Under the pieces are notes generated by a model, which was not told the origin of the DNA, searched no databases, and was given only the letters and a program-made list of their open reading frames with translations. From positions 736,001 through 800,000 of the forward strand of contig JAVZJD010000001.1 in assembly GCA_038870975.1 (NCBI GenBank): 64,000 nt of DNA. The letters are read 5' to 3'. The stretch's first letter is position 1, and each line of letters starts with the position of its first letter. The stretch is from Candidatus Bathyarchaeia archaeon (GTDB taxonomy: Archaea > Thermoproteota > CALKCG01 > B24). Below are positions 12,468-25,178 of the stretch, one piece after another. A program made the position numbers and the translations under genes.

Positions 12468-13703
12468 TCATCGTTTAAGGCTAAGTCTCCTAGAAAGCGC
12501 TAAAATACCTGAGGATACTAATCCAAGCGCTCCCATGAATAATAGTGCTGGTGTGAAAGAAGCGAAATAATCTAAAAGAAAACCCATAATACTCGTCCAT
12601 ATGGAGGCAAATATGAAGTTCGTAGTAAAGTAGACACCTACTGCTAGGTCTTTTGCATATCCTTTAGTTATACTCAACAAGTACGACTGTGTAAGTGTGG
12701 CTATAGAAAAGCTCATGAAAAATAGAATGAAAAGGTGGATTCCTATTGTAAAGTCTGGGCTCTTGTAGATTGTTAAGAAACACGTTAAGATGGCTGAAGT
12801 AGATGTCGATATAACAGCCCCCTTAAGATAACCAATTTTAGCTGAATATTTCCCGAGTAGTACTGGGCCAATCACACCCCCCAATAGTCCCATCGTATAG
12901 ATAATCCCCCTTTCATATACATCTGCGCCAACACCATTTGCTAGGAAAATAGGTATATACGTCGTCATAATCGTTAAATCTGTTCCCCCAGAGTTTATGG
13001 CTAAAGCAACTAGTACAAGGATTATAGACTTTTCGTTAAGCAATGTTCTTACATCTGATTTTATAGACGATTTTACACCGCTACTAACAACAGGCTTTCT
13101 TCCTCTCAAACACAGCAGTAGTAGAATCCCTATCGCAAGCGGTGGAAGAGAGAAAATAAGAAAAGTCCCCCTCCATCCTAGGTACTGGGAAAGTAGAGTC
13201 GCTACGACAGGTCCGACTATATTGCCTATGTAGGCAAATCCGAAGAAGAATCCTATAGCTCTTCCAAGAGTCTTCTCGTCATATTCCTCGGCCAGTATTG
13301 CGGCACCCATTGGATGTTGCGGTGCAACTCCAATTGAGAAAATATTTCTAGCTATGAGAAAGTCTATAAAACCCTTGGCTAGACTGGTTAAAGCACCACC
13401 TAAAAATATGAGGAAATCGCCTATCCCCAGTAGAATATGTCTCGCAACAGCCCTACTCGACATACTGAAAGCCACCTGCAATATACCCCCAATAAAGGAT
13501 GCCATACCTATGATAAGTCCGAAAGAGGAATAGCTCAGATTGAGATCGACTATCATTATAGGGAATAGTATGGATAAACCTACGAATAGATGTTGCATGG
13601 CATGGGATGATGTAACAATTGCTAAAACCATTTTGGAAGTTATAGCCTCTCTTCTGTATTCTTCTACTGTCAAGTAAGACCTATTGGAATTTTCCGTATA
13701 CAT
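12468..13703 (-). CDS. MFS transporter
   Basis: About 12 hydrophobic segments; HPMGAAIL...GRAIG, LGWRGTF. Confidence 0.85.
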
Positions 13704-13905
13704 ATATTAACTTTACTAGACTGAACTGCCTTCAATCCATTTGTTTTCACAGGTAACATCAATAATATTGATGCTACGCTTCGCTGTAGATTATTATCTT
13801 ATTTACCCGGAATTTTTAAAAAGATGTCTAATGTTCCTAATACTATTTAATGGTCATTCAACTCCTGAGTTTCCTTAGTGCCATGGGATTAGCTATGCTA
13901 TATCT

Positions 13906-13961
13906 ATAAAATTTTCCTTATCTAAATTTTAGACAAATTTTCTTGTCTAAAACTTTAAAAA
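13906..13961 (+). promoter_or_regulatory. Palindromic operator TTTTAGACAA-ATTTTC-TTGTCTAAAA abutting a TATA box, with a degenerate second copy upstream
   Basis: Perfect 10-6-10 palindrome at 13927-13952; TTTAAAAA at 13954; 25 bp identical to 24684-24708. Confidence 0.75.
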
Positions 13962-13986
13962 TATTGAGGAAAAGAATTATTTGAAC

Positions 13987-14526
13987 ATGATTGAAAAATG
14001 GAGAAAACATGATATTTATTATGGCTATGAGTATTACTACAAGTTAAATGACCTTATTAAATCTGGTAAATGTAACCACGATGTAAGAAGCACTCCAGAG
14101 TATAAATTGCTATCAACTATAAACCCTCATCTCGCTGAGGCTCTGGCTATTGAAAATGAAATTATTAATTTAAGGAATTCGCTTAAGAATAATCGTTCAG
14201 AGAAAGGGAAAAACAACTATCTAAAAAATTTAAAGCTTCAAAATCAGATAAGAAAACTTGAGCTTAAGAGAGATCTTGAATTGAATAAAGCTAAAACAAG
14301 ATTAGGTTATATAGATACAATGAATGCTTGGAAAAGAAGGAGAGCTAAGGAAAAAATCGCAAAAATTAGAAAAATACCAGGCAAAGTTAAAACCAAGATC
14401 AATGATTTCATAACAAGTCTTATAGCCAAAGGGATTGAAAAAACTACTATTCCTTATAAAATAGAGGAAATTGTTAAAAACGGAATGAATCAGACGCTAA
14501 AAGATCTGGTGGAGGAAAAAAGTTAA
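13987..14526 (+). CDS. Hypothetical basic, coiled-coil-rich protein
   Basis: Open AT-rich ORF rich in Lys/Asn, preceded by a TATA box and the palindrome. Confidence 0.65.
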   Translation: MIEKWRKHDIYYGYEYYYKLNDLIKSGKCNHDVRSTPEYKLLSTINPHLAEALAIENEIINLRNSLKNNRSEKGKNNYLKNLKLQNQIRKLELKRDLELNKAKTRLGYIDTMNAWKRRRAKEKIAKIRKIPGKVKTKINDFITSLIAKGIEKTTIPYKIEEIVKNGMNQTLKDLVEEKS

Positions 14527-14574
14527 TTTTAAACCCCTCAGCGCTCCATCTTACGTAGGAAGCATATTATCTAG

Positions 14575-15804
14575 TTAATCTTCATTAACTACTGTTATGT
14601 GAGTTGCACAGGATATACAGGGGTCGAATGCCCTTATAGCGGTTTTAAGATTTTCCACAGCCTCTTTTACTGGTAGACCTTTTTCAAGAGCCCTTTCAAC
14701 GATATTTCTAGAAAACGCCTTAAGAAAGGGTAGATTTAACTCCGTTGGAGTTATTATTTTAATGCTCTTTACTACTTCTTCTTCAACTTCACACTCGTAA
14801 ATCAATGTACCCCTAGGAGCTTCAACGAAACATCTTCCGAAGCCGCTCTTCTTCTGTGGAGTTTTCCTGTACAATCCTTCTAAGTCCTTTAAAGTTCTCA
14901 ATAAATTCATAGAATACGATAGAGCATTTATAATCTCTAAAATCCTAAGCATGTAAAGATTAAGTAGATTATAAATTGGGAGACCCTCTTCTAGACTATA
15001 ATGTAAGCTAATGAGAGTTTGTCGAGCCAAAGGCCCTGTAAGAATGTCTCTAGTTAACAGGTCTTTAAGTTCTTCCAGAACTTCTAACTCTCTCCAGCTT
15101 GTGCCCTCGTATACCTTAAGCGTACCGTTTATCGGATCCATATCTCTACCGAAGCTTGTAATAAGAGCAGGTGTTCTCTCCAAATTAAACATCTCATAGT
15201 ATTTAGACTTACTAAGATTCTTGGAAATGTTCAGAGCCCAGTTCATGTCTTCCAAGACCTTTTTAACCTCTCTCTCAAGATCGTTTATTGAAGACCCTAC
15301 GATCGGCATATTTAGAAGACCTCCTACTGTCGATATCCCAGGTGATATGGGTCCTCCCGCTATTGATGATAGTAGTCGATCGGCAAACCTTATAACGTTT
15401 AAACCACTACGGAGTAGTCTATAATCCAATAGCTTTTCATCCATTCCAAGAAGTCTAGTGGCATCTTGAAGTCCCATTAAAAAAAGATTATAGGAATGAC
15501 TTCTAATATGTTCTAAGCTCAGAATCAGCCGTCTAACACTTGATGCTAATGGAGGTGCTTCTACATTCAAAGCCTTCTCTAATGCTATAGAGGCGGCTAT
15601 TTGGTGAGAAAACGGGCAGACGCCACATACTTTTGTCACTAACGATGGAATAATGTGGGCTCTTTTTCCGCGTAGAAGGGTTTCAAACTTCCTTAAAACC
15701 GGAAGATTAAGCTCCAATTCTTGAACCTTCCGTTTATGTATTTTAACGATGACTTCTGAAGCGCCTTCAACTCTCGTAAGCGGATGTACTTGTTTAAAAG
15801 ACAT
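14575..15804 (-). CDS. Group 3 (MvhA-like) [NiFe]-hydrogenase large subunit, divergent
   Basis: PLTRVEG, L1 KVCGVCPFSH, EAPRGTL, L2 FDPCISCATH plus a short C-terminal extension. Confidence 0.9.
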   Translation of the reverse strand: MSFKQVHPLTRVEGASEVIVKIHKRKVQELELNLPVLRKFETLLRGKRAHIIPSLVTKVCGVCPFSHQIAASIALEKALNVEAPPLASSVRRLILSLEHIRSHSYNLFLMGLQDATRLLGMDEKLLDYRLLRSGLNVIRFADRLLSSIAGGPISPGISTVGGLLNMPIVGSSINDLEREVKKVLEDMNWALNISKNLSKSKYYEMFNLERTPALITSFGRDMDPINGTLKVYEGTSWRELEVLEELKDLLTRDILTGPLARQTLISLHYSLEEGLPIYNLLNLYMLRILEIINALSYSMNLLRTLKDLEGLYRKTPQKKSGFGRCFVEAPRGTLIYECEVEEEVVKSIKIITPTELNLPFLKAFSRNIVERALEKGLPVKEAVENLKTAIRAFDPCISCATHITVVNED

Positions 15805-16537
15805 ACTCCCTCTTCCCATATAGGTTTAGGATATCTATAACATCATACTTCAACTCCTTAGGAATGGTAAGTAAAGCTAAGAAATCAATTAGAGATGTTA
15901 ACGAATTATCCTTAAGTGTACCCATACATCCATAGCAACTCCCACCTTGAACAATACATTTTGCCTCACATCCAGCTCTAGTTATAGGTCCAAGGCATAG
16001 AATCCCCTCCTCTAATAGGCACTGCTCGGTTTTCCGCTTTGGAAAAATTTCTCTAATGATTATTGGATATTTTGCCCTACAAGGATGGAATGGGCACTCT
16101 GAGCATACGTTAACTGTCTTATGTTTGAATTCTCTACCACCGATTAAGGCGTAAAGTAGCATCGACATCAGGTTTTCAGGAGGGGGGCAACCTGGGAGCT
16201 CCAGGTCCACTTTTATTATACTATGTATGGGTTTAAGCTCTAGCTCTTTAACATTGCTCGAGATACCTCCAAAGCATGCACAAGACCCTATGGAAATTAC
16301 TCTTCTAGCCTTTGCACGTACTTTTTTAAGCAATTTTTCATCTTCTTTCAAAGCTGAGCCCTCTATAAGTAGCACATCACAATCATCTACATCTCCCCCA
16401 TCCTTTATCATTGGGAAAAAAGCCACGTAACCCTTATTCCATAGTTCTCTAAAGACACTTGAATCTATTACTGATGTTAAACAGCCGCTGCATCCAATAA
16501 ATTGGAGGAAACCTATTTTAGAGGCTTTTAGCCCCAT
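15794..16537 (-). CDS. Group 3 (MvhG-like) [NiFe]-hydrogenase small subunit
   Basis: CSGC, GSCACFGG, PGCPP, CSEC...CLGPITRAGCEAKC...CYGC. Confidence 0.9.
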   Translation of the reverse strand: MGLKASKIGFLQFIGCSGCLTSVIDSSVFRELWNKGYVAFFPMIKDGGDVDDCDVLLIEGSALKEDEKLLKKVRAKARRVISIGSCACFGGISSNVKELELKPIHSIIKVDLELPGCPPPENLMSMLLYALIGGREFKHKTVNVCSECPFHPCRAKYPIIIREIFPKRKTEQCLLEEGILCLGPITRAGCEAKCIVQGGSCYGCMGTLKDNSLTSLIDFLALLTIPKELKYDVIDILNLYGKREYVF

Positions 16538-16539
16538 TG

Positions 16540-19017
16540 CTAAGAACCTCCTAGGTTGCGCATAAAATCGTCCAAAGCTTTTGCGAAAACCCTCCCCTCA
16601 ACGGCAGACAACTGAAGGATTTTAACTTTATTTTTAAACATATTTTCAAATAACTGGATGTTTTCTATTCTTTTCTCAGCAAGTTCAGCTCCTAAACCAT
16701 AGCGGCATGACTCTTTCCTACATCCAACTACTAATACGCCATCGAACCCCTTCTCTAAAGCGTGGGCTATAAGCTCTGAATCTATTAGTCCAGCACACGT
16801 AACTTTCAATGTAAACGCTTTAGCGGTATATTCCAGACTTTTAACACCAGCATCTATGAATGCAGGATAGCCGCAGTTAGCACAGGCTAGCACTAAAACC
16901 TTCGGTTTAAAGTATGCCTTTGAAAATTCATCCATAAATGCTAATAACTCCTCTTCATTAATTGAGGATAAGCGTAGCGCATCTGTAGGACATACCGCCG
17001 TACAAAGACCACAAGCCTTGCACTTGAACTGATCTACGGTCATTTTGTCCGCAGAAAATTTTATTGCGTTAAATGGACACACTGTAGCACAAAGACCGCA
17101 GGTTCCACAGCTTTTTTCGTCTAATAAAATCCCCTCTTCCTCCACTGTAACTTCACCTTTCGTGAGAAGGGAAGCCACTTTTAATGCTGTAGATTGAGCA
17201 TCGTAGACAAGTTCTCTGTACGTTTTAGGACCAGTTATGGAACCGCATGCGAAAATACCAAAGGGTAACGTATCAGGGTTTAAAAACCCCCTATCTGTTG
17301 TAGAGATATCTAAAAGTTTTTTAAGCTCCATTATACGCTTTCTGGGGTCTTCTCCCAAGTTTAAGATGACTAAATCGCAGTCCCATTCAAATTCATCCCC
17401 TAAAACCTTAGGGCCTTCCTCAATACGTAAGTTCTTAACAATATGAATGGGTAGGTCTTTCAAATTACCCAAAGGCGCATTTGCAGGAATCCTATCCTCT
17501 TCAAAAATTATTCTTATATCCATACTAGAGTCCATCTTCTTCAAAGTTTCAAAATACTTGCGAGCAAGAATGCAACAGTATTTTGAGCAACCTACTTCAT
17601 TTATACATTGAATGATAGCTACCTTTTTGGGATGGGATTTACCAAATCTTAGTAAAACTTCTTCGATTGGAGCTTCTGGGGTGAGTAAGCTCTCTAATTC
17701 GACGTTCGTTATGACGCCAGTAGTCAATCTATGTTTAAACTTTTTCAATAGTTCGCCATTGTAGTTATCGCAACCCGTTGCGATAACTATGGCTCCCACT
17801 CTGTATATATTCTCCATGCCTTTTGAATCGAAATTTATAGCTCTTGATGGACAGTTCTCTTCGCATTTGCGACATGAAAAGCAACGTTGGTTGTCATTTT
17901 TATCCACGATTGCTGCTTTAGGATAAACCGTCGATAATGGGAGGAAGATCTGTTTTCTGACAGTAAAGCCTAGATAACGTTCGTCTGGCTTTTCTACGGG
18001 GCAAACTTCAATACAGCGGCCACAGAGAGAACACCGTTCAGCATCCACATACGTAGGATTAGTCTTAACTATAAGTTGGAAATCCCCAATCTTCCCAGAA
18101 ATTTGGATAACTTCGGAGTTTGTGAGTATTTTAAGATTTTTAAACTCCAGAACGCTTGAGATTATTTCAGACATCATACAGCTAGCACAGTCACTTTCGC
18201 CATACACACTACTCCAATTCATTACCCTACCGCCTAATGTATGCTCCCTCTCTATCAAGTATGTTTCAAACCCCATTAAAGTCATGTATCTGGCAACAAT
18301 TAAACCGCTTATTCCTCCTCCTATAATCGCTACAGACTTAGGAATACGGACAGTCCTCTTGAAGGGCTTAGGTTTAAAATTTATCGCTCGAACAGCTCCA
18401 TTAATTGTACACATAATCTTCTCGAAAGCTTCCTTTGGAGAACTTCGGTTAACCCTTATGCATCCTTCAAGGATATTTACAGCTTCGTAAGGAATATCTA
18501 TGGTTGAAAGAAGTTCACGTAATCCATTATGAATCTCCGGAGAGCAACCTACTATAACAATTCCATCTAAAAGGTTTCTCTCTATCCACTTTTTTATCCT
18601 CTGAAAATTCCCAGGGCTACATACGTTTTTAAATACGTCAACGGCTACAATATTTTCCATTTCAGATAGCTTTGATGATAACTCTTCTAAATTTATAACC
18701 TTAGAAACTTCACCATGACATTCACAAAATATTATACCAATTCTAGAAACACGTATAGGCTCAGCAACACCAGTACGCCTAACTCCCAACCCCTCTTTAA
18801 GTCTTAAGAAATTGTAAAGTTCGTAACCTTCTTCATTTAAAGAATAAAGTTTTCCCCTCTTCTCTATAAAGGGTGAAATCTTACTCAAATGATAATTAAA
18901 TTTACCAGTTTCTTTAACCCCCACCTTTTCCATAAGCTCAGAATAGGTTAGGGGACCCAGTTCTCCTAAAACCCTGATTATGCTTTCTCTTATAGGATGG
19001 GTTAAAACATCGAACAT
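16540..19017 (-). CDS. Winged-helix + HdrA-like flavoprotein + MvhD-like fusion
   Basis: aa 1-75 ArsR-like wHTH (LTHPIRESII...LTYSELM...TGKFNYHL...YSLNEEG); HdrA: CECHG, GCSP, IIGGGISG, CASC, ferredoxin insert, GAIVIATG; two further 4Fe-4S motifs; MvhD: ACANCGY, VTCAG, GFDGVLVVGC...SCRY. Confidence 0.88.
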   Translation of the reverse strand: MFDVLTHPIRESIIRVLGELGPLTYSELMEKVGVKETGKFNYHLSKISPFIEKRGKLYSLNEEGYELYNFLRLKEGLGVRRTGVAEPIRVSRIGIIFCECHGEVSKVINLEELSSKLSEMENIVAVDVFKNVCSPGNFQRIKKWIERNLLDGIVIVGCSPEIHNGLRELLSTIDIPYEAVNILEGCIRVNRSSPKEAFEKIMCTINGAVRAINFKPKPFKRTVRIPKSVAIIGGGISGLIVARYMTLMGFETYLIEREHTLGGRVMNWSSVYGESDCASCMMSEIISSVLEFKNLKILTNSEVIQISGKIGDFQLIVKTNPTYVDAERCSLCGRCIEVCPVEKPDERYLGFTVRKQIFLPLSTVYPKAAIVDKNDNQRCFSCRKCEENCPSRAINFDSKGMENIYRVGAIVIATGCDNYNGELLKKFKHRLTTGVITNVELESLLTPEAPIEEVLLRFGKSHPKKVAIIQCINEVGCSKYCCILARKYFETLKKMDSSMDIRIIFEEDRIPANAPLGNLKDLPIHIVKNLRIEEGPKVLGDEFEWDCDLVILNLGEDPRKRIMELKKLLDISTTDRGFLNPDTLPFGIFACGSITGPKTYRELVYDAQSTALKVASLLTKGEVTVEEEGILLDEKSCGTCGLCATVCPFNAIKFSADKMTVDQFKCKACGLCTAVCPTDALRLSSINEEELLAFMDEFSKAYFKPKVLVLACANCGYPAFIDAGVKSLEYTAKAFTLKVTCAGLIDSELIAHALEKGFDGVLVVGCRKESCRYGLGAELAEKRIENIQLFENMFKNKVKILQLSAVEGRVFAKALDDFMRNLGGS

Positions 19018-19388
19018 AATCTAGCAAGTACTAAAAAAGACGGTGCAATTATACTTTTCGCATATAAAGAACTCGTCTAAAACCATCCACTAGTGTGAGT
19101 TTTGCATACCATATTTTTACGAGTCTAATGAGCCTCCACTTCTTATCTGAAGGTTCATAATTTATTAGCGATTGGTCAATTAACTTATAAACGTGCTCTT
19201 ATAGTTCAACAATTCTTGCCGACTGTTTTTAGAAGCTTTTTAAATGATTCATCACTTTTCAATCCTCTATCTTTATTCAAAAATACAATCCTGTTATTAA
19301 CCGACTAATTCAAAAGATAAGTGAAGATCAAGTTAAGAGATATGCAAATTAAGTGGTATTTATATTGATATCCCAATATTACGTGGGT

Positions 19389-20822
19389 TTAAAATAATGC
19401 TTCCATAATACCCAACGAGCCTCGTTTTTCTTCTTCAGTACTACTTAAAATTTGCGCTAGAAGTCCTTCTCTCTTCATAGTTATTTCTGGTCTCAAATAT
19501 GGTTGACCCCCTCCATAAAGACATCCTCTATTACATATGTAGAGTTCTATCGCTCCTTCTCGTAATCTTCCATCATTTACGCTCATTAATATTCTCTCCA
19601 TCTCTTGAATTCCTACAGCTTTATTTGTTTTAAAGTTTAACTCATTTAATTTAACCTCATCAAATGACTTTTCAGTCAATATACCGAAGTCTAAAGTACT
19701 TAGTAATCTGATAAGTTCTCTCGTAGTAAGAATAAGCCCTCTACTAAGTTTCCTAGCTAAACACGAAGTAATCCATACAACAGAAGAGCTATCGATTTTA
19801 GGAGGCTCAATCATATACTTAGAAAGTTCTGGATGAAATCGCTGTATATAGATTGCTTCAGCCTCACTGCTTGGAATTATCGTTAGATTATCTTGCACTC
19901 TCACTGCAACCTGAGGCCTCCAGAGGATAACTTTTTCAAATCCTAATTTTTTAAGTGCTGCTACTGCGATTCCGCTAATTCGTTTATCAAAATTCAGTTC
20001 TTCACCAAGAGCTGCTAAAACCTCTGGTTCAACATAGGCTGTTAAGCGAGTTCCAGATTTAAGAAGCCTCTGAACCTCACTTACGGAGCTTCTCTCCTTT
20101 AAAGCACCTACCGGGCAGTATAACGTACATTGACCGCAACTTATGCAAGATGACTCATCTAGCTTAACTTTAAATGGTGTGGATACTGTTGTCTCAATGC
20201 TTCTGTTTATATAGTCTATCGCAGAAACAATTTCTTGACATACTTTAACGCATCGGCCACATGTAATACATTTCTCCCCGTCTAATGATAATGCAGTTCC
20301 CTCGATATCCAGTGTTTTCTCACGAATAAATGGAAATCTTCGCTCCTCTTGTTTAAACCACACGTTTTGGAGAATCTTCTCTAAAAGACTTAACAATTCA
20401 TATCTATTCATCGGGCATCCTCTAACGTAATAATCGACATTGACGAATCTGCTAACTGGCATCGCCTCGCTAAAGTATTTATGTTCAGAGTAATCTTCAA
20501 CATACACACTTTTTACTTCATCTTCATTTGTAAATCTTCTTAAGCCTGGCACACCGCCTAAAACTGCACATGATCCCATTGCTATTAATATCTTAGATCT
20601 TCTTCTGATGTCTTTAATCGTCGCAACATCTCCCTCCGAGACTATAGCACCCTCAATTAGAGAAATGTCATAGTTTTCACATTTTTCATCTGCTCCCAAA
20701 AGCGTGGAGAATACAACCTCAACTTCTTTATTGTAGACCATTTTCAGCAAGTCTTCACTTAAATTTAACATCTCAATAGTACAACCCGAACAACTTCCAA
20801 ACTTGTATATGGCGATTTTCAT
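19389..20822 (-). CDS. Hybrid subunit: [NiFe] small-subunit N-domain fused to 2x[4Fe-4S] and a degenerate [FeFe]-hydrogenase H-domain
   Basis: CSGC, EG, GSCAVLGG, RGCP; CITCGRC, CISCGQC...CPVGAL; ALKKLGFEKV, TSCLARK, LTTREL, ELYICNRGCLYGGGQP. Confidence 0.88.
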   Translation of the reverse strand: MKIAIYKFGSCSGCTIEMLNLSEDLLKMVYNKEVEVVFSTLLGADEKCENYDISLIEGAIVSEGDVATIKDIRRRSKILIAMGSCAVLGGVPGLRRFTNEDEVKSVYVEDYSEHKYFSEAMPVSRFVNVDYYVRGCPMNRYELLSLLEKILQNVWFKQEERRFPFIREKTLDIEGTALSLDGEKCITCGRCVKVCQEIVSAIDYINRSIETTVSTPFKVKLDESSCISCGQCTLYCPVGALKERSSVSEVQRLLKSGTRLTAYVEPEVLAALGEELNFDKRISGIAVAALKKLGFEKVILWRPQVAVRVQDNLTIIPSSEAEAIYIQRFHPELSKYMIEPPKIDSSSVVWITSCLARKLSRGLILTTRELIRLLSTLDFGILTEKSFDEVKLNELNFKTNKAVGIQEMERILMSVNDGRLREGAIELYICNRGCLYGGGQPYLRPEITMKREGLLAQILSSTEEEKRGSLGIMEALF

Positions 20823-21527
20823 CTACTCATCACCTTCATCAAACCATTCATTTTTATTATTCTTATTGAAGAACTGTGCTATCACTTTAACAACGCTATC
20901 ATAGTATGGACTGCTAGAATAATATCTACCCAGTTTCACAAGGATATTCTCCAGAGTTATTCCATGACTGCTATAGAGCTTCACAGCCTCTTTAATTACA
21001 TCAGTACGCATTATCGGTCCACGGCATCCTTCACAGCTTCTATTACTGTGCATACATATGCCATCACATCCAGCGACTGTTAGAGGTCCAAGGCATACTT
21101 CACCGTTAGCCAATAGACAGTCTTCTTCATGCAAGGGGCACTCTGCGCACACAGGTATACCTTCAACACCATATTCCTTACATAAAACTAGTAATTCACA
21201 TTTACCTCCCTTTCTTGGGCATGATTGACACTTAATCTTATGAATAGCTAAAATAACCTCCAAAGCCAATTTACGGTCGCTTCTAACTCTTTCATTATTT
21301 GTTTCCACGTTTAATCCTTCAGATACGGGGAATGCACATGAAGGAATCATCTTACCAGTTTTCTTATCCTCTACCACACATATTCTACATGTAGCTTCTT
21401 CAAACACATTGGGGAAATAACAAAGGGTAGGTATTTCTATACCGAGTTTTTTCGCAGCCTCAAGTACTGTAGTACCATCTTCAACAGTAGCCTCTTTCCC
21501 ATCTATGATTACCCTTACCATGCTCAT
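20823..21527 (-). CDS. Hybrid FeS subunit: HydA/NuoG-type N-terminus (2Fe-2S, His-ligated 4Fe-4S) fused to the [NiFe] small-subunit C-domain
   Basis: IPTLC...CRIC...PSC; HKIKCQSC...C; then VCAECP...CL...CLGPLTVAGCDGIC...CEGCRGP. Confidence 0.88.
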   Translation of the reverse strand: MSMVRVIIDGKEATVEDGTTVLEAAKKLGIEIPTLCYFPNVFEEATCRICVVEDKKTGKMIPSCAFPVSEGLNVETNNERVRSDRKLALEVILAIHKIKCQSCPRKGGKCELLVLCKEYGVEGIPVCAECPLHEEDCLLANGEVCLGPLTVAGCDGICMHSNRSCEGCRGPIMRTDVIKEAVKLYSSHGITLENILVKLGRYYSSSPYYDSVVKVIAQFFNKNNKNEWFDEGDE

Positions 21528-21528
21528 A

Positions 21529-23508
21529 TCACCTCTTTACTACGGCCCCTCTTGGGCATACCATGGAGCATTGTCCGCATCTTATGCACCTTTCAGCATC
21601 TATATAGTATTTGCCATCAATATCCTTAAATATTGCTTCAACGGGACAATTCTTCGCACAGAGTCCACATCCTATACAAACATCCTTATCGATTGTATAG
21701 TTTAACAGCTTTTTACATACTTTTGCGGGGCACCTCTTCTCGTTAATATGGGCCTCATATTCCTCCCTAAAGTATTTGAGTGTTGTTAAAACTGGATTTG
21801 GAGCCGTTTGGCCTAACGCACATAAGCTTGCATCTTTCATGAATTTACTTACGTTTTCTAAGACTTCCAAGTCTTCTTCCAAACCACCTCCATCTATTAT
21901 TCTGCTAAGGGTATCATAAAGTATCTTTGACCCTGCTCTACATGGTAGACATTTACCACAGGCCTCAGCCATAGTAAATGTTGTGAAAAACCTCGCTACG
22001 TCTACTATACAGTTGCTATCATCAATAACGACTAATCCACCAGACCCCATTATAGCACCTGCAGAGGTTAAACTTTCATAGTCTATCGGTAAATCAAGTG
22101 CACTTTCAGGTAAGCATCCTCCAGAGGGTCCACCAATCTGAACGGCTTTAAATTTTCTCCCTTCTCTAATGCCTCCTGCTATCTTAAATATGAGTTCTCT
22201 TATTGTTGTTCCTATTGGGACTTCAGCAGCCCCTGTCCTCTTAGCACATCCAGTAATACAGAAGACCTTTGTCCCTTTACTTCTCTCAGTTCCATACCTG
22301 GCAAACTTTTCCCACCCTTCGGCCATTATTGTAGCTACATGAGCTAGCGTTTCAACGTTATTGATGGTCGTCGGTTTACCAAATAAGCCATGTGTAGCTG
22401 GATATGGTGGACGCTGTCTTGGCATAGCTCGCCTCCCCTCTATGGCTGCTAACATCGCTGTTTCCTCTCCACAGACAAATGCTCCTGCGCTCCGTACAAC
22501 TTCTACGTTGAAGTTAAACCCTGAATTGAATATGTTTTTTCCTAAGAAACCGTATCGCCTAGCTTCATCAACTGCCTTTTCCAACCTTTCAGCCATCAGG
22601 GCTTTCTCCGCTCTAACAAAAATATATCCATATGTAGCACCTATGGCGTATGCAGCTATTATTAAGCCTTCTAAAACTCTATGAGGATCTGCTTCAGCAA
22701 GCATCCTATTCATGAAAGCTCCAGGATCTCCTTCATCAGCATTGCATATAACGTATTTAGGTTCCCCCTGAGCCTTTCTACATATATCCCATTTTAACCA
22801 TGTTGGAAAACCAGCTCCTCCTCTTCCTCTTAGACCAGACCTCTTAACTTCTTCTATAACCTCTCCAGGTGATAATTTTAATGTTCTATTGAGGCCAAGG
22901 TAGCCACCGTGAGCAATGTACTCTTCAATTGACTCGGGGTTTATGATGCCACAATTTCTGGTAACCCACTTCACTTGATACTTGTAGAAGTCTATCTCCT
23001 CTAAGAGAGGAACCTTATTTTCACCTCTAGCATTACCCGTTCTACTTCTGAGAGCAAAGGCGTTGCTAACATCACCATTATTTAAATATTCATCTAGAAT
23101 TTTTCCGACATTTTCAGGAGTCACTTTACTATAAATGGCATGAGGTAATCCATCCTTACGTATTTCGACTAAAGGTTCAGCATAACATAAACCCATACAG
23201 CCAACGGGGACGATAGAAACTTCTAATCCTCTTTGCTTAACTTCTTTCTTGATAGCGTGATAAACTTCCCCAGCTCCAACAGCTAAACCGCAGCTTCCCA
23301 TGCCCACAGTTATTTTTACTCCACCCTTACCATTTCTTATCTCTGAAATTCTCCGTAACCTTCTTTCTTTACATTCCACGTCTTTATGGCATAATGGGCC
23401 ATTAACTCTACATGTTATATAGTCCTTGCAGGGTCTCTCAATCTTATGGTTGCATTGACTACAACAGGCATCCATTAAACTCAATCCATTATGGACATCC
23501 AATGGCAT
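21529..23508 (-). CDS. NuoF/HydB-like NADH-binding flavoprotein with a C-terminal 2x[4Fe-4S] domain
   Basis: SGLRGRGGAGFPT, NADEGDPGAF, CGEET, CGKCLPCR, SLCALG; thioredoxin-like N-domain. Confidence 0.93.
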   Translation of the reverse strand: MPLDVHNGLSLMDACCSQCNHKIERPCKDYITCRVNGPLCHKDVECKERRLRRISEIRNGKGGVKITVGMGSCGLAVGAGEVYHAIKKEVKQRGLEVSIVPVGCMGLCYAEPLVEIRKDGLPHAIYSKVTPENVGKILDEYLNNGDVSNAFALRSRTGNARGENKVPLLEEIDFYKYQVKWVTRNCGIINPESIEEYIAHGGYLGLNRTLKLSPGEVIEEVKRSGLRGRGGAGFPTWLKWDICRKAQGEPKYVICNADEGDPGAFMNRMLAEADPHRVLEGLIIAAYAIGATYGYIFVRAEKALMAERLEKAVDEARRYGFLGKNIFNSGFNFNVEVVRSAGAFVCGEETAMLAAIEGRRAMPRQRPPYPATHGLFGKPTTINNVETLAHVATIMAEGWEKFARYGTERSKGTKVFCITGCAKRTGAAEVPIGTTIRELIFKIAGGIREGRKFKAVQIGGPSGGCLPESALDLPIDYESLTSAGAIMGSGGLVVIDDSNCIVDVARFFTTFTMAEACGKCLPCRAGSKILYDTLSRIIDGGGLEEDLEVLENVSKFMKDASLCALGQTAPNPVLTTLKYFREEYEAHINEKRCPAKVCKKLLNYTIDKDVCIGCGLCAKNCPVEAIFKDIDGKYYIDAERCIRCGQCSMVCPRGAVVKR

Positions 23509-23626
23509 TCACCTCTATGGGAAGTTGAAGGAATTATAAGAGTACTTTAATTAAAACATAAGTATACTACCTATATATGGGAATAATTCCTTTCGCCGTA
23601 GATTTATAATTCAAAAATGTTCACCT

Positions 23627-24190
23627 CTATATTTCGCCATATGATTCTCCTTTAGTTTTAGTTCGATACTTGGAAATTATCCTACGGAGCTTCTTAAAAT
23701 CAACTTCACCATATATTTCATCATTCACTTTGATAACTGGGGCTAGACTGCAGCATCCTAGGCATCTAACTTTAAATACAGTGAAGAGCCTATCCTTAGA
23801 AGTATTTTCGCCAGGATTAATATTAAGTAAATTCAGTAGGAAGTTGTAGTTTTCAGAGTTGCCTTTAATATGGCACGCTGTGCCCATACATATTTGTATT
23901 ATATTCTCACCGGGCGGCTCCATATTGAATTGATGGTAAAACGTGGCGACTCCATAGATGCTACTTAGTGGTACTTTTAAATTGTTTGAAACAAGTTCTA
24001 AGCTCCACTTTGGAAGATAACCTAATCTATTCTGAATTTTCTGGAGGATCAGAATGAGGGTTTTTCTAGATCTACCATTACTTTCAATAACATTGTTTAT
24101 AACTTCCTCAATAAATGCTACATCAACATCTCTAGATACTTGCTGTTGCAAATCCTCGCCTCCATTGCTCTGTTGTTCTCTGGGGCTCAC
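23627..24190 (-). CDS. NuoE/HydC-like [2Fe-2S] subunit
   Basis: GVATFY, CMGTAC, CLGCCSLAP. Confidence 0.93.
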   Translation of the reverse strand: MSPREQQSNGGEDLQQQVSRDVDVAFIEEVINNVIESNGRSRKTLILILQKIQNRLGYLPKWSLELVSNNLKVPLSSIYGVATFYHQFNMEPPGENIIQICMGTACHIKGNSENYNFLLNLLNINPGENTSKDRLFTVFKVRCLGCCSLAPVIKVNDEIYGEVDFKKLRRIISKYRTKTKGESYGEI

Positions 24191-24199
24191 CTACTACGC

Positions 24200-24640
24200 T
24201 TATAGTTGCGCTCTTAAGAAGTACCATAGATGCTTGCAGAACTCTTCATACTGTTGTGGAGTAAATAGATATTGGATGTCTTCTTCAAGATTTGTTGGCT
24301 CAACTTCAGCAACCCACTCTTTTTCTGGGTCGTTATTTAAAGCTGATATGTTGTTTAAAGCTTCATCATTAATCTTTTTAATTCTGCCAGAAACTGGTGA
24401 AGTTAATTCAAAAGTGACCCCCTTCATTTTCACTGCCCCTAAGGGCTCCATCCGTTTAACCTCAGCTCCAATCGGCTTCAGCTCACAACAAACATCATAT
24501 GCTCCATTTTTGCTCAATTCTTTAAAACAATCACATATTTGTTGAGTTAATCCAATTCTAACAGTTTGTTCATCAGTAATCGTTACCCACATGAGGGAGG
24601 ATGTGTAGAGGAAACCTGAAGGGTAAATTTTCTTACTCAT
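24200..24640 (-). CDS. GcvH-like protein lacking the lipoylated lysine
   Basis: VRIGLT, ELTSPVSGRIKKIN, LNNDPEKEWVAEV; the E-S-V-K-A hairpin reads K-M-K-G-V. Confidence 0.8.
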   Translation of the reverse strand: MSKKIYPSGFLYTSSLMWVTITDEQTVRIGLTQQICDCFKELSKNGAYDVCCELKPIGAEVKRMEPLGAVKMKGVTFELTSPVSGRIKKINDEALNNISALNNDPEKEWVAEVEPTNLEEDIQYLFTPQQYEEFCKHLWYFLRAQL

Positions 24641-24673
24641 GAGTCATCACCCACTTGTGGTGTTCCATACCTA

Positions 24674-24730
24674 TTTTTTAAACTTTTAGACAAATTTTCT
24701 TGTCTAAATTTTAGATAAGAAAATTTTTAT
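24674..24730 (-). promoter_or_regulatory. Palindromic operator plus TATA box of the gcvH-hydC-hydB-hybrid operon
   Basis: 24684-24708 identical to 13927-13951; minus-strand TTTAAAAA 1 bp away; degenerate second copy upstream. Confidence 0.75.
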
Positions 24731-25178
24731 AATCATATCAACTACTAAGAACCTATTTGAGAACCTTGAATTTTAGACTTCCAACTCTACACTTCTTCTG
24801 AGTATTTATCTAAAAATGTTTTCCAGTCTTTACTACATCGTTTTCTATCTTATTTCTGGCAGAATATAGGATACTTATTGACAAAGAAAATTGCTATTTG
24901 TCTCTTTTGAGCATTAGCTTAAGTAATACAGTATAATCTTTAACCAAAAACATAATTCAGTTTTCCCCTCCATGTCCATCTTTACTCATCGTAAGAGCGA
25001 TAAACAATATCAATACAGAATTTATTAGCAGAAGAGTGCTCCGAGCGGGCACTGTCACTTCGGGTCCAAATCTCTTCTCCCCGCCTAACCCCTCAATGGT
25101 CGTTCTCACTGATAGTTGTACTTGAAGATGCCGGAAACAGTCTGAAGATATGGGTTAGAAAGTCCATTAGAAATTTGA

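Follow-up and report, generated by a model that had tools for sequence, protein, structure and literature searches.

The stretch of DNA considered here (64,000 nucleotides of contig JAVZJD010000001.1 from a Candidatus Bathyarchaeia archaeon, referred to below as the window) carries a module of three genes on its minus strand: a gene encoding a protein of 825 amino acids (aa; 16540-19017) and, tightly downstream from it, genes encoding an MvhG-like small subunit (247 aa; 15794-16537) and an MvhA-like large subunit (414 aa; 14575-15819) of a [NiFe] hydrogenase. The 825-aa protein joins a winged helix-turn-helix (wHTH) domain, an HdrA-type flavoprotein and an MvhD domain in a single, intact open reading frame (ORF), as described in an initial annotation of this DNA. 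Two identical copies of a palindrome, considered here as putative operators, lie at the edges of the locus, and sites with the same core recur beside homologous modules in distant archaeal lineages. The coordinates of all features are given in Table 1.

The wHTH-HdrA-MvhD fusion protein

The N-terminal domain of the fusion is a member of Pfam family DUF7347 (residues 2-69; 53 bits, for a cut-off of 27.6), with a weak match to HTH_20, and it has a winged-helix fold complete with recognition helix and wing. Its elements are helices at residues 8-20, 25-32 and 37-46 (the last being the recognition helix, ETGKFNYHL), a wing at residues 51-60 and a C-terminal helix at residues 62-76. In the full-length AlphaFold model (AF2; pLDDT 89.6, pTM 0.78), pLDDT is 95-98 across the winged helix and about 40 for linker residues 78-88, which are disordered; the length and sequence of this linker vary across the alignment of the fusion family. 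The isolated domain was folded by AF2 as helix, helix, recognition helix, wing and C-terminal helix, with a pLDDT of at least 95. A sequence search of the winged helix against solved structures returned no significant match; neighbors in the PDB were obtained instead by a fold search with Foldseek (probability 1.0, TM up to 0.76), and all of them are dimeric DNA-binding regulators. They include BigR, NolR, CadC and RexT of the ArsR/SmtB family, together with HxlR, YodB, a QsrR-DNA complex, MarR proteins, Sso10a and AspA, the TM values for BigR, HxlR, YodB and the QsrR-DNA complex being 0.57-0.76. The ArsR-like winged helix reported in the initial annotation is thus borne out by a fold resembling that of dimeric DNA-binding ArsR/HxlR/MarR regulators. 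The recognition helix and the wing are the best conserved parts of the domain across the family, residues T37, G38, N41, H43, K53, Y58 and G64 being invariant in the first ten members aligned, and the family alignment contains no conserved cysteine or metal site within the 76 residues. On the basis of these models, the N-terminal domain looks like a flexibly tethered DNA binder.

Residues 92-698 align end to end with the solved HdrA chains 9sfi_A, 8rvu_a and 5odc_A (residues 5-649 of 9sfi_A are covered, with an E value of 6e-83). From N- to C-terminus, this module contains a [4Fe-4S] domain, an FAD domain (GGGISG, DCASC) with an inserted 2x[4Fe-4S] ferredoxin domain, a QC...CSKYCC cluster and a C-terminal 2x[4Fe-4S] ferredoxin domain; Pfam also identifies two ferredoxin domains in the fusion. 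All the elements of a full-length HdrA (N-terminal cluster, FAD GxGxxG, DCxxC, both ferredoxin domains and C...CSxxCC) are retained, and across the first ten family members aligned their cysteine and glycine columns show little or no variation. The NCBIfam HdrA2 and HdrA models match from residue 92 onward, with a best HdrA2 score of 459 bits, below the equivalog cut-offs of 1100-1400 bits; judged by these scores, the HdrA part belongs to a divergent subfamily and is not itself an equivalog. It had been noted at the outset that the HdrA, small and large subunits looked shortened and divergent. This holds only to a modest degree: the HdrA part, although complete, falls short of solved HdrA proteins by about 40 aa. 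The region corresponding to CVGSR does read QCINEVGCSKYCC, as reported, which amounts to the deletion of a seven-residue loop, and all four cysteines are preserved.

The C-terminal MvhD/FlpD domain (residues 707-822; 88.4 bits, for a Pfam cut-off of 22.3) matches the solved MvhD chains 5odc_D and 8rvu_F, and its cysteines C712, C715, C741, C766 and C771 are invariant in the family alignment. A genome-wide domain scan identified it as the only FlpD domain of the genome.

Reality and distribution of the fusion

The fusion is not an artefact of assembly or gene calling, an explanation that was rejected on the grounds that the ORF is intact in more than ten independent assemblies and in three metagenome studies. 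Contigs from these three independent hot-spring studies bridge the fusion gene at about 99.7% identity with no insertion or deletion inside it, such differences being confined to intergenic DNA. Near-identical copies (about 99.7%) of the whole locus (window positions 13700-24900) are present in hot-spring metagenomes from several separate studies. In a sediment metatranscriptome (run X16), short contigs with at least 99% identity fall inside the fusion, small-subunit, HyhS-fusion, NuoF-like and GcvH-like genes. These contigs are only a weak hint of expression, DNA carry-over being possible and no transcript ends being visible, and the missing cover over the large subunit carries no meaning.

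A word-indexed search yielded nine clusters of full-length homologs, with 90% down to 34% identity, all with both DUF7347 and FlpD; the next matches beyond this family have 29% identity and lack the winged helix. An exhaustive phmmer search with residues 1-225 against 1.84 billion representatives gave only about six clusters at 50% identity spanning the winged helix and the N-terminal domain of HdrA. These sequence comparisons indicate that the wHTH-HdrA-MvhD proteins form a rare, discrete family. The truncation seen in member P0010 is a gene-call error, as the open frame at locus L003 contains the full winged helix. The order fusion, small subunit, large subunit is found in every genomic context fetched, and the three-gene module recurs at 34-91% identity among metagenome-assembled genomes (MAGs) labeled Bathyarchaeia, Thermoproteota, Promethearchaeota/Lokiarchaeia and Thorarchaeota; the closest relatives (76-91% identity) are among 'Candidatus Bathyarchaeia' MAGs. 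The genome collection was scanned with a seven-sequence N-terminal alignment. In the window's class (17 species genomes), the full fusion is present in four of the six genomes of its own genus and in none of the 11 others, a patchiness suggesting that the module moves as a unit together with its operator. The module is therefore probably mobile. The database names given to family members (HdrA, hydrogenase iron-sulfur subunit, FAD-dependent oxidoreductase, DUF7347 protein) ignore the winged helix.

Hydrogenase subunits

The two subunits reported downstream from the fusion gene are indeed present there, with all four Ni-binding cysteines. The best solved matches of the small subunit are 9sfi_I and 5odc_E (MvhG/VhuG). 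The Ni motifs of the large subunit (the CxxC pairs C65/C68 and C401/C404) are invariant in the nine family members aligned. Judged by sequence matches, the large subunit is about as close to 3b references as to those of 3a, 3d and 3c, and the small subunit is nearest MvhG/VhuG. There is no sign of a group 2b system, as the best matches are group 3 enzymes and no kinase gene is found at any of the listed loci. The replacement of the L1 arginine by lysine, which had been pointed out initially, is confined to the window's clade, other family members keeping RxCGxC. Seven residues follow the C-terminal histidine of the window's large subunit, and 0-7 across the family. Given that only 0-7 residues follow the C-terminal CxxH, maturation of the large subunit may be independent of the usual endopeptidase cleavage. 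The large subunit of locus L015 ends at its C-terminal histidine, and that of L014 has an asparagine in place of this residue.

The palindromic operator in the window

The palindromes flanking the module in the initial annotation are real: an identical 24-mer is found at two sites (copies A and B), and one of these is in the promoter of the neighboring NuoEF-type operon. Both fit T(A)GACAA-N6-TTGTC(T)A, an inverted repeat with 11 bp, or about one helical turn, between the centers of its two half-sites. Copy B is 44-67 bp upstream of the start codon of a gcvH-like gene and faces the gcvH-like/NuoE-like/NuoF-like/HydD-like/HyhS-HydA-like operon; it has a third half-site (TTTAGATAAG, 24709-24720) and abuts a TATA-like box (TTTAAAAAA, minus strand). 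Copy A, 36-59 bp upstream of an ATG at 13987, faces a gene encoding a 181-aa protein; it, too, has a third half-site (CTTATCTAAA, 13915-13924) and abuts a TATA-like box (TTTAAAAATA). Two related loci, L006 (73% protein identity) and L009 (90%), retain the half-sites at the homologous promoters but have different 6-nt spacers. The two promoter cassettes (13905-13966 and 24674-24735) are near-identical over about 60 bp, each consisting of a TATA-like box, the third half-site, the palindrome and a TATA box; they face inward, 10.8 kb apart, as though one promoter had been duplicated.

The exact 24-mer occurs twice in the 1.85-Mb genome, both times at this locus, and the remaining 14 matches to the core with one mismatch lie outside recognizable promoters, 13 of them within ORFs. 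With two perfect sites only, and one-mismatch matches away from promoters, a genome-wide repeat or the site of a global regulator was rejected as an explanation. Palindromes directly upstream of the fusion gene were also considered and rejected: a scan of 19018-19388 gave merely a weak AT-rich 12-mer, with nothing in common with distant loci. This 370-bp spacer, which separates the two sets of genes and has no ORF or RNA assigned to it, is well conserved in the two closest relatives. Its invariant blocks include TATA-like boxes and a short palindrome (ATGAATCAT), but the three sequences of the alignment (A2) are too alike to be informative.

Co-occurrence of operator and module

Of 13 lineages, about 10 have the core GACAA-N6-TTGTC beside the module. 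In the 8.5 kb of flanking intergenic DNA from ten lineages, 18 core sites were found, for 0.32 expected from dinucleotide shuffles, and the remaining locus DNA (about 179 kb) contains only four. Loci L012-L015, fetched after the motif had been fixed, have nine sites for about 0.2 expected. At most one mismatch was accepted in distant lineages, in which the core is found in the upstream region of the module itself and often also after the large-subunit gene, ahead of the next gene. There is one site at L001, two each at L003, L013, L014 and L015 (a Promethearchaeota MAG), and three each at L008 and L012. One of the L012 sites is 5 bp upstream of a TTTATAAA box, and this placement of the operator just upstream of a TATA box is common to the window, L012 and L008. 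Perfect sites occur on either side of the module in the Asgard loci L024-L026, and L021 has a perfect one downstream from it. No site accompanies the nearest HdrA-MvhD protein that lacks a winged helix, the gene for which (L016) lies in a pyruvate-oxidoreductase context. With half-sites conserved around variable spacers in close relatives, and recurrence beside the module in distant TACK and Asgard lineages, the palindrome behaves as a locus-specific operator, in agreement with the role given to the flanking palindromes in the initial annotation.

The only HTH-bearing gene common to all these loci is the fusion gene, which makes its product the parsimonious candidate for the operator-binding protein; from this co-occurrence we infer that its winged helix binds the operator. 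A different reading of the same domain is that it has a structural or docking role, for DUF2096-type proteins or the NuoEF module for example, and that an unlinked transcription factor binds the palindromes. A precedent is provided by BamF of class II benzoyl-CoA reductase, an MvhD-type adaptor with a winged helix-turn-helix in an HdrA-like (BamE) bifurcating complex, in which this motif contacts BamI (bioRxiv 10.64898/2026.04.10.717634). Consistent with docking, genes for DUF2096_N proteins are divergently oriented beside the module in L001, L003 and L008, with fusion to an HdrC-like protein in L003, and the fusion gene of the window has no operator in its own upstream region. However, the motif of BamF is an internal protein interface, whereas the winged helix of the fusion is N-terminal, associated with a palindrome and flexibly tethered on HdrA, by a linker that AF2 predicts to be disordered, rather than packed on the core. 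Its structural neighbors all bind DNA, its recognition helix and wing are its most conserved parts, the window's genome has no DUF2096_N domain, and operator and module co-occur across TACK and Asgard archaea with no other HTH gene in common. A mere docking role thus seems quite improbable, and DNA binding by the winged helix is retained as the preferred reading.

Partners and target genes of the module

No CCG (HdrB/HdrD) domain is present anywhere in the genome of the window (1.85 Mb, two contigs, 92.9% complete), which extends to the whole genome the absence of hdrB and hdrC first noted in the window, and no DUF2096_N domain was found in this genome. Unlike this genome, L003 and L015 have CCG partners adjoining the module. 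The divergent neighbors of the module in L003 are genes for a DUF2096_N protein, for a fusion of DUF2096_N to an HdrC-like protein and for an HdrB-like protein; in L015, the module lies between an FrhB-like gene, which comes first, and an HdrD-like one. Pairs of small proteins (125-137 aa), of which one or both are DUF2096_N proteins, are encoded divergently from the module at L001:8634-9428, L008:2481-3321 and L003:8380-9707; DUF2096_N may be an adaptor for Hdr-type complexes.

The genes on the operator side encode the NAD(P)H/FMN module and the 181-aa protein in the window and antiporter-type proteins in L008; elsewhere, they also include the module itself and DUF2096/HdrBC-like genes. Judging from these annotations, the operator-associated target genes are redox-related. 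A MtdB-like (Mpt_N) gene lies beside the module, behind a copy of the operator, at L012:5822-6610, L014:9511-10845 and L015:1-1800, and is homologous across the three. This gene, which resembles those for methylene-tetrahydromethanopterin dehydrogenase, is a conserved candidate member of the regulon that would link the switch to C1 metabolism. L015 also has a paralogous 213-aa gene beside the Mpt_N gene.

These partners bear on whether the complex is an enzyme or a dedicated H2/redox sensor, that is, a complex without metabolic turnover serving as the input of a one-component regulator and functionally like HoxBC/HupUV. A dedicated sensor is rather unlikely, although it is the leading alternative to the reading preferred below. 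It would fit a genome with no CCG domain, no DUF2096_N domain and a single FlpD domain, in which the usual high-potential branch therefore has no partner; it would also fit the short tail of the large subunit, which is family-wide and recalls regulatory hydrogenases without a cleaved extension, the regulon of two promoters only in the window's genome, and the lysine in place of the L1 arginine in the window's clade. However, the inserted and C-terminal ferredoxin domains, by which electrons leave HdrA, are fully conserved, as is its FAD site, and a sensor would have no use for them; the hydrogenase, moreover, is group-3-like rather than of group 2b. The modules of L003 and L015 adjoin HdrB/HdrC-, HdrD- and FrhB-like genes, and the NuoEF-type module adjacent to that of the window could be the missing acceptor branch. 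Given the retention of every cofactor site of HdrA and the HdrBC/HdrD/FrhB neighbors elsewhere, a working enzyme is likelier than a pure sensor, and the initial picture of an electron wire repurposed for sensing alone is not supported.

Neighboring genes

The operon behind copy B matches, in its order of HydC (NuoE), HydB (NuoF), HydD and HyhS-HydA, the gene order of the group F hybrid [FeFe]/[NiFe] hydrogenases of archaea as given in the main text of Greening et al. (2024; PMC11216029). The bifurcating [NiFe] hydrogenase HydABCSL of Acetomicrobium mobile (PDB 7T2R) is another system for comparison. The adjacent hybrid hydrogenase announced in the initial annotation does not withstand closer inspection. 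In the 477-aa HyhS-HydA-like fusion, the P1 motif TSCCP of the H-domain reads IPSSEA, with both cysteines lost and those of P2 and P3 kept; neither HydF nor HydG was found in the genome; and the operon contains no HyhL. A functional group F hybrid was rejected on these three grounds. The genome has five small-subunit-like genes for four large subunits, such that the HyhS-HydA-like small subunit has no large-subunit partner of its own. From its sequence, the operon is better described as a NuoEF-type diaphorase/Fe-S module, with no second catalytic hydrogenase, and the adjacent hydrogenase or HdrA may be its docking partner. In its first protein, which has a GcvH fold, a glycine is seen by eye at the usual position of the lipoyl-lysine, with a lysine one residue earlier and extra cysteine pairs (CDC, CC); no glycine-cleavage genes are found near this gene.

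The 181-aa basic protein encoded on the other side of the module is 79% identical to the 175-aa product of the L009 gene, has homologs only in the window's clade and matches no Pfam family.

Table 1. Features of the locus (positions in the window).
Feature	Position	Strand	Remarks
Putative operator, copy A	13928..13951	.	24-mer identical to copy B; conserved before homologous L009 gene
181-aa basic protein gene (likely ATG 13987)	13981..14526	+	Converges on hydrogenase genes; copy A promoter
Group-3 [NiFe] hydrogenase large subunit, 414 aa	14575..15819	-	Ni ligands C65, C68, C401, C404
MvhG-like small subunit, 247 aa	15794..16537	-	Pfam Oxidored_q6; best NCBIfam match VhuG
Fusion: MvhD/FlpD [2Fe-2S] domain and stop codon	16540..16923	-	Residues 699-825; Pfam FlpD
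Fusion: complete HdrA module	16924..18744	-	Residues 92-698
Fusion: flexible linker	18745..18789	-	Residues 77-91, about 15 residues
Fusion: winged helix-turn-helix domain	18790..19017	-	Residues 1-76; Pfam DUF7347
Intergenic region upstream of fusion gene	19018..19388	-	TATA-like boxes about 35-55 bp before ATG
[NiFe] small-subunit-like + 2x[4Fe-4S] + degenerate [FeFe] H-domain fusion	19389..20822	-	Pfam Oxidored_q6, Fer4, Fe_hyd_lg_C tail
HydD/NuoG-N-terminal-like Fe-S conduit	20823..21527	-	Pfam Fer2_4, NADH-G_4Fe-4S_3
NuoF/HydB-like FMN + NAD(P)H subunit, extra ferredoxin domains	21529..23508	-	Pfam Complex1_51K, NADH_4Fe-4S, Fer4
NuoE/HydC-like thioredoxin-like [2Fe-2S] subunit	23627..24190	-	Pfam 2Fe-2S_thioredx, 4e-43
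GcvH-fold gene, first of operator-bearing operon	24200..24640	-	Pfam GCV_H, 4e-16
Putative operator, copy B	24685..24708	.	TTTAGACAA-ATTTTC-TTGTCTAAA; same promoter conserved in L006, L009

Proposed mechanism

The fusion has a redox catalytic domain and a putative DNA-binding domain on one polypeptide, which is the arrangement of a trigger enzyme. The reading preferred here is that of a PutA-like trigger enzyme or one-component regulator in which the redox state of a hydrogenase-fed HdrA gates operator binding, and its chances are put at about even. The MvhA-like and MvhG-like subunits would form a cytoplasmic group-3 [NiFe] hydrogenase, from which electrons would pass, via the [2Fe-2S] cluster of the fused MvhD domain, to the complete HdrA flavoprotein. 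HdrA is a dimer in the solved complexes, and the fusion would therefore present two winged helices, which could bind the inverted repeat that, in promoters of the module or next to it, lies directly upstream of the TATA and B recognition elements (TATA/BRE). H2, acting via the hydrogenase, and the acceptor pools would determine the redox or conformational state of HdrA. A change in this state would alter the occupancy of the operator, such that transcription of the redox-partner genes would track redox state or the availability of H2. The complex would probably still be a working enzyme, a 'trigger enzyme' in the style of PutA, and not a pure sensor. The narrower proposal that the complete [NiFe]/MvhD/HdrA chain is the sensory input of a one-component transcription factor, with H2-driven reduction of the flavoprotein moving the winged helices on or off the operator, is a tentative one, somewhat more likely to fail than to hold. 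The dependence of DNA binding on H2 or redox state is, at this stage, purely conjectural. As to the direction of regulation, an operator just upstream of the TATA/BRE elements could serve activation or occlusion of the BRE.

Several observations weigh against this mechanism. The fusion gene of the window has no copy of the operator in its own upstream region (19018-19388). No site was found at L007 (identical to L020), or on the sampled, upstream side of L022 and L023. The core motif was refined after L001 and L008 had been viewed, and only the loci fetched later therefore constitute a clean test. An unlinked factor could bind the operator, and, by analogy with BamF, the winged helix might be a protein interface rather than a DNA binder. 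The mechanism also assumes that, in an HdrA dimer, both N-termini are placed such that a winged helix can reach each half-site, at a spacing of 11 bp. Finally, the genome has no CCG-domain protein that might act as the catalytic partner of the complex.

A simpler arrangement would be an ordinary enzyme of the Mvh-Hdr type with a fused auto-regulator, the DNA binding of which is constitutive or dependent on a small ligand and is unaffected by the redox state of flavin or Fe-S clusters. The ArsR/HxlR/MarR relatives of the winged helix usually sense metals, electrophiles or small molecules within the winged helix itself, and allosteric coupling to HdrA is not obvious, as the linker is flexible in the AF2 model. 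However, the 76-residue domain has no conserved cysteine or metal site, the target genes are redox partners, and, were there no functional coupling, it would be difficult to account for the maintenance of the fusion at 34%-91% identity in two archaeal supergroups. Such an uncoupled auto-regulator is highly doubtful, and the redox-gated trigger enzyme remains the reading to be compared with known systems.

Comparison with known systems

The module has the same set of subunits as MvhAGD-HdrABC, the bifurcating H2:heterodisulfide/ferredoxin complex of methanogens (5ODC, 8RVU, 9SFI), and the same order of cofactors: [NiFe] large subunit, MvhG-like small subunit, MvhD [2Fe-2S] and HdrA with FAD and six [4Fe-4S] sites. 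The fusion of HdrA to MvhD is itself already known, as HdrA2 of Methanosarcina (NCBIfam NF040770) is a natural fusion of this type. The N-terminal winged helix, by contrast, is present in the fusion family and in no described HdrA. The window's genome also differs from these systems in having no HdrB/HdrC (CCG) and in the score of its HdrA part (459 versus 1100 bits), and the hosts of the module are non-methanogenic TACK and Asgard archaea. No paper mentioning DUF7347 or a winged-helix HdrA was found in the literature, which agrees with the initial remark that no system with this architecture had been described, and the main text of Greening et al. (2024; PMC11216029) mentions no winged-helix HdrA.

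The closest functional analogy for the proposed mechanism is PutA, in that a flavoenzyme and an N-terminal DNA-binding domain are combined in one polypeptide. PutA is a bacterial flavoenzyme with an N-terminal ribbon-helix-helix domain; it senses proline by reduction of its FAD, the redox state of which decides whether the protein sits on its operator, and it switches by binding to the membrane. BirA and NadR are other trigger enzymes. The system proposed here would differ from PutA in its input, H2 via a hydrogenase and an Fe-S chain, and in its DNA-binding fold, a winged helix. The genome contains only one other DUF7347 domain, outside the window (G000:C1:452250-454532, corresponding to L011:251-2533), in a 760-aa frame that combines it with an ATP-cone and an anaerobic ribonucleotide reductase (NrdD); other genera of the class also have frames, of about 750 aa, that match the winged helix. 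By analogy, this NrdD fusion could be another trigger enzyme, as a second protein combining a winged helix and an enzyme; no site resembling GACAA-N6-TTGTC is found upstream of its gene.

To our knowledge, the H2 sensors described are all bacterial, consisting of group 2b [NiFe] enzymes with kinases and of group C [FeFe] enzymes. In the former, HoxBC/HupUV act with the HoxJ/HupT kinase in multi-component phosphorelays, and the latter use PAS or phosphatase domains. The module resembles regulatory hydrogenases in being a proposed hydrogenase input to the control of transcription, and in the little or no C-terminal extension of its large subunit. Unlike these bacterial systems, it has a group-3-like hydrogenase, a locus without a kinase and a putative DNA-binding domain fused to the flavoprotein.

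Significance

The class of regulator to which the module is assigned (one-component or trigger enzyme) is known; what has no precedent is the input module, which is accompanied by an operator amenable to testing. H2 sensing in archaea is an open question. If the proposed mechanism is correct, the fusion would be the first transcription factor of archaea described as sensing H2, and no regulator fed by a hydrogenase would before it have been found to do without a kinase; it would extend the trigger-enzyme principle to flavin-based electron-bifurcating complexes and give a function to Pfam DUF7347, a DNA-binding role that current database names miss. Such a compact H2-responsive switch may also be useful as a biosensor part. 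For the organisms concerned, the module would constitute a portable, self-contained genetic switch responding to H2 in TACK and Asgard archaea, including Lokiarchaeia and Thorarchaeota. Models of Asgard syntrophy and eukaryogenesis give a central place to H2 exchange, and, with a domain of about 76 residues and an operator of 22-24 bp, H2-dependent gene control in uncultured Asgard archaea becomes directly testable.

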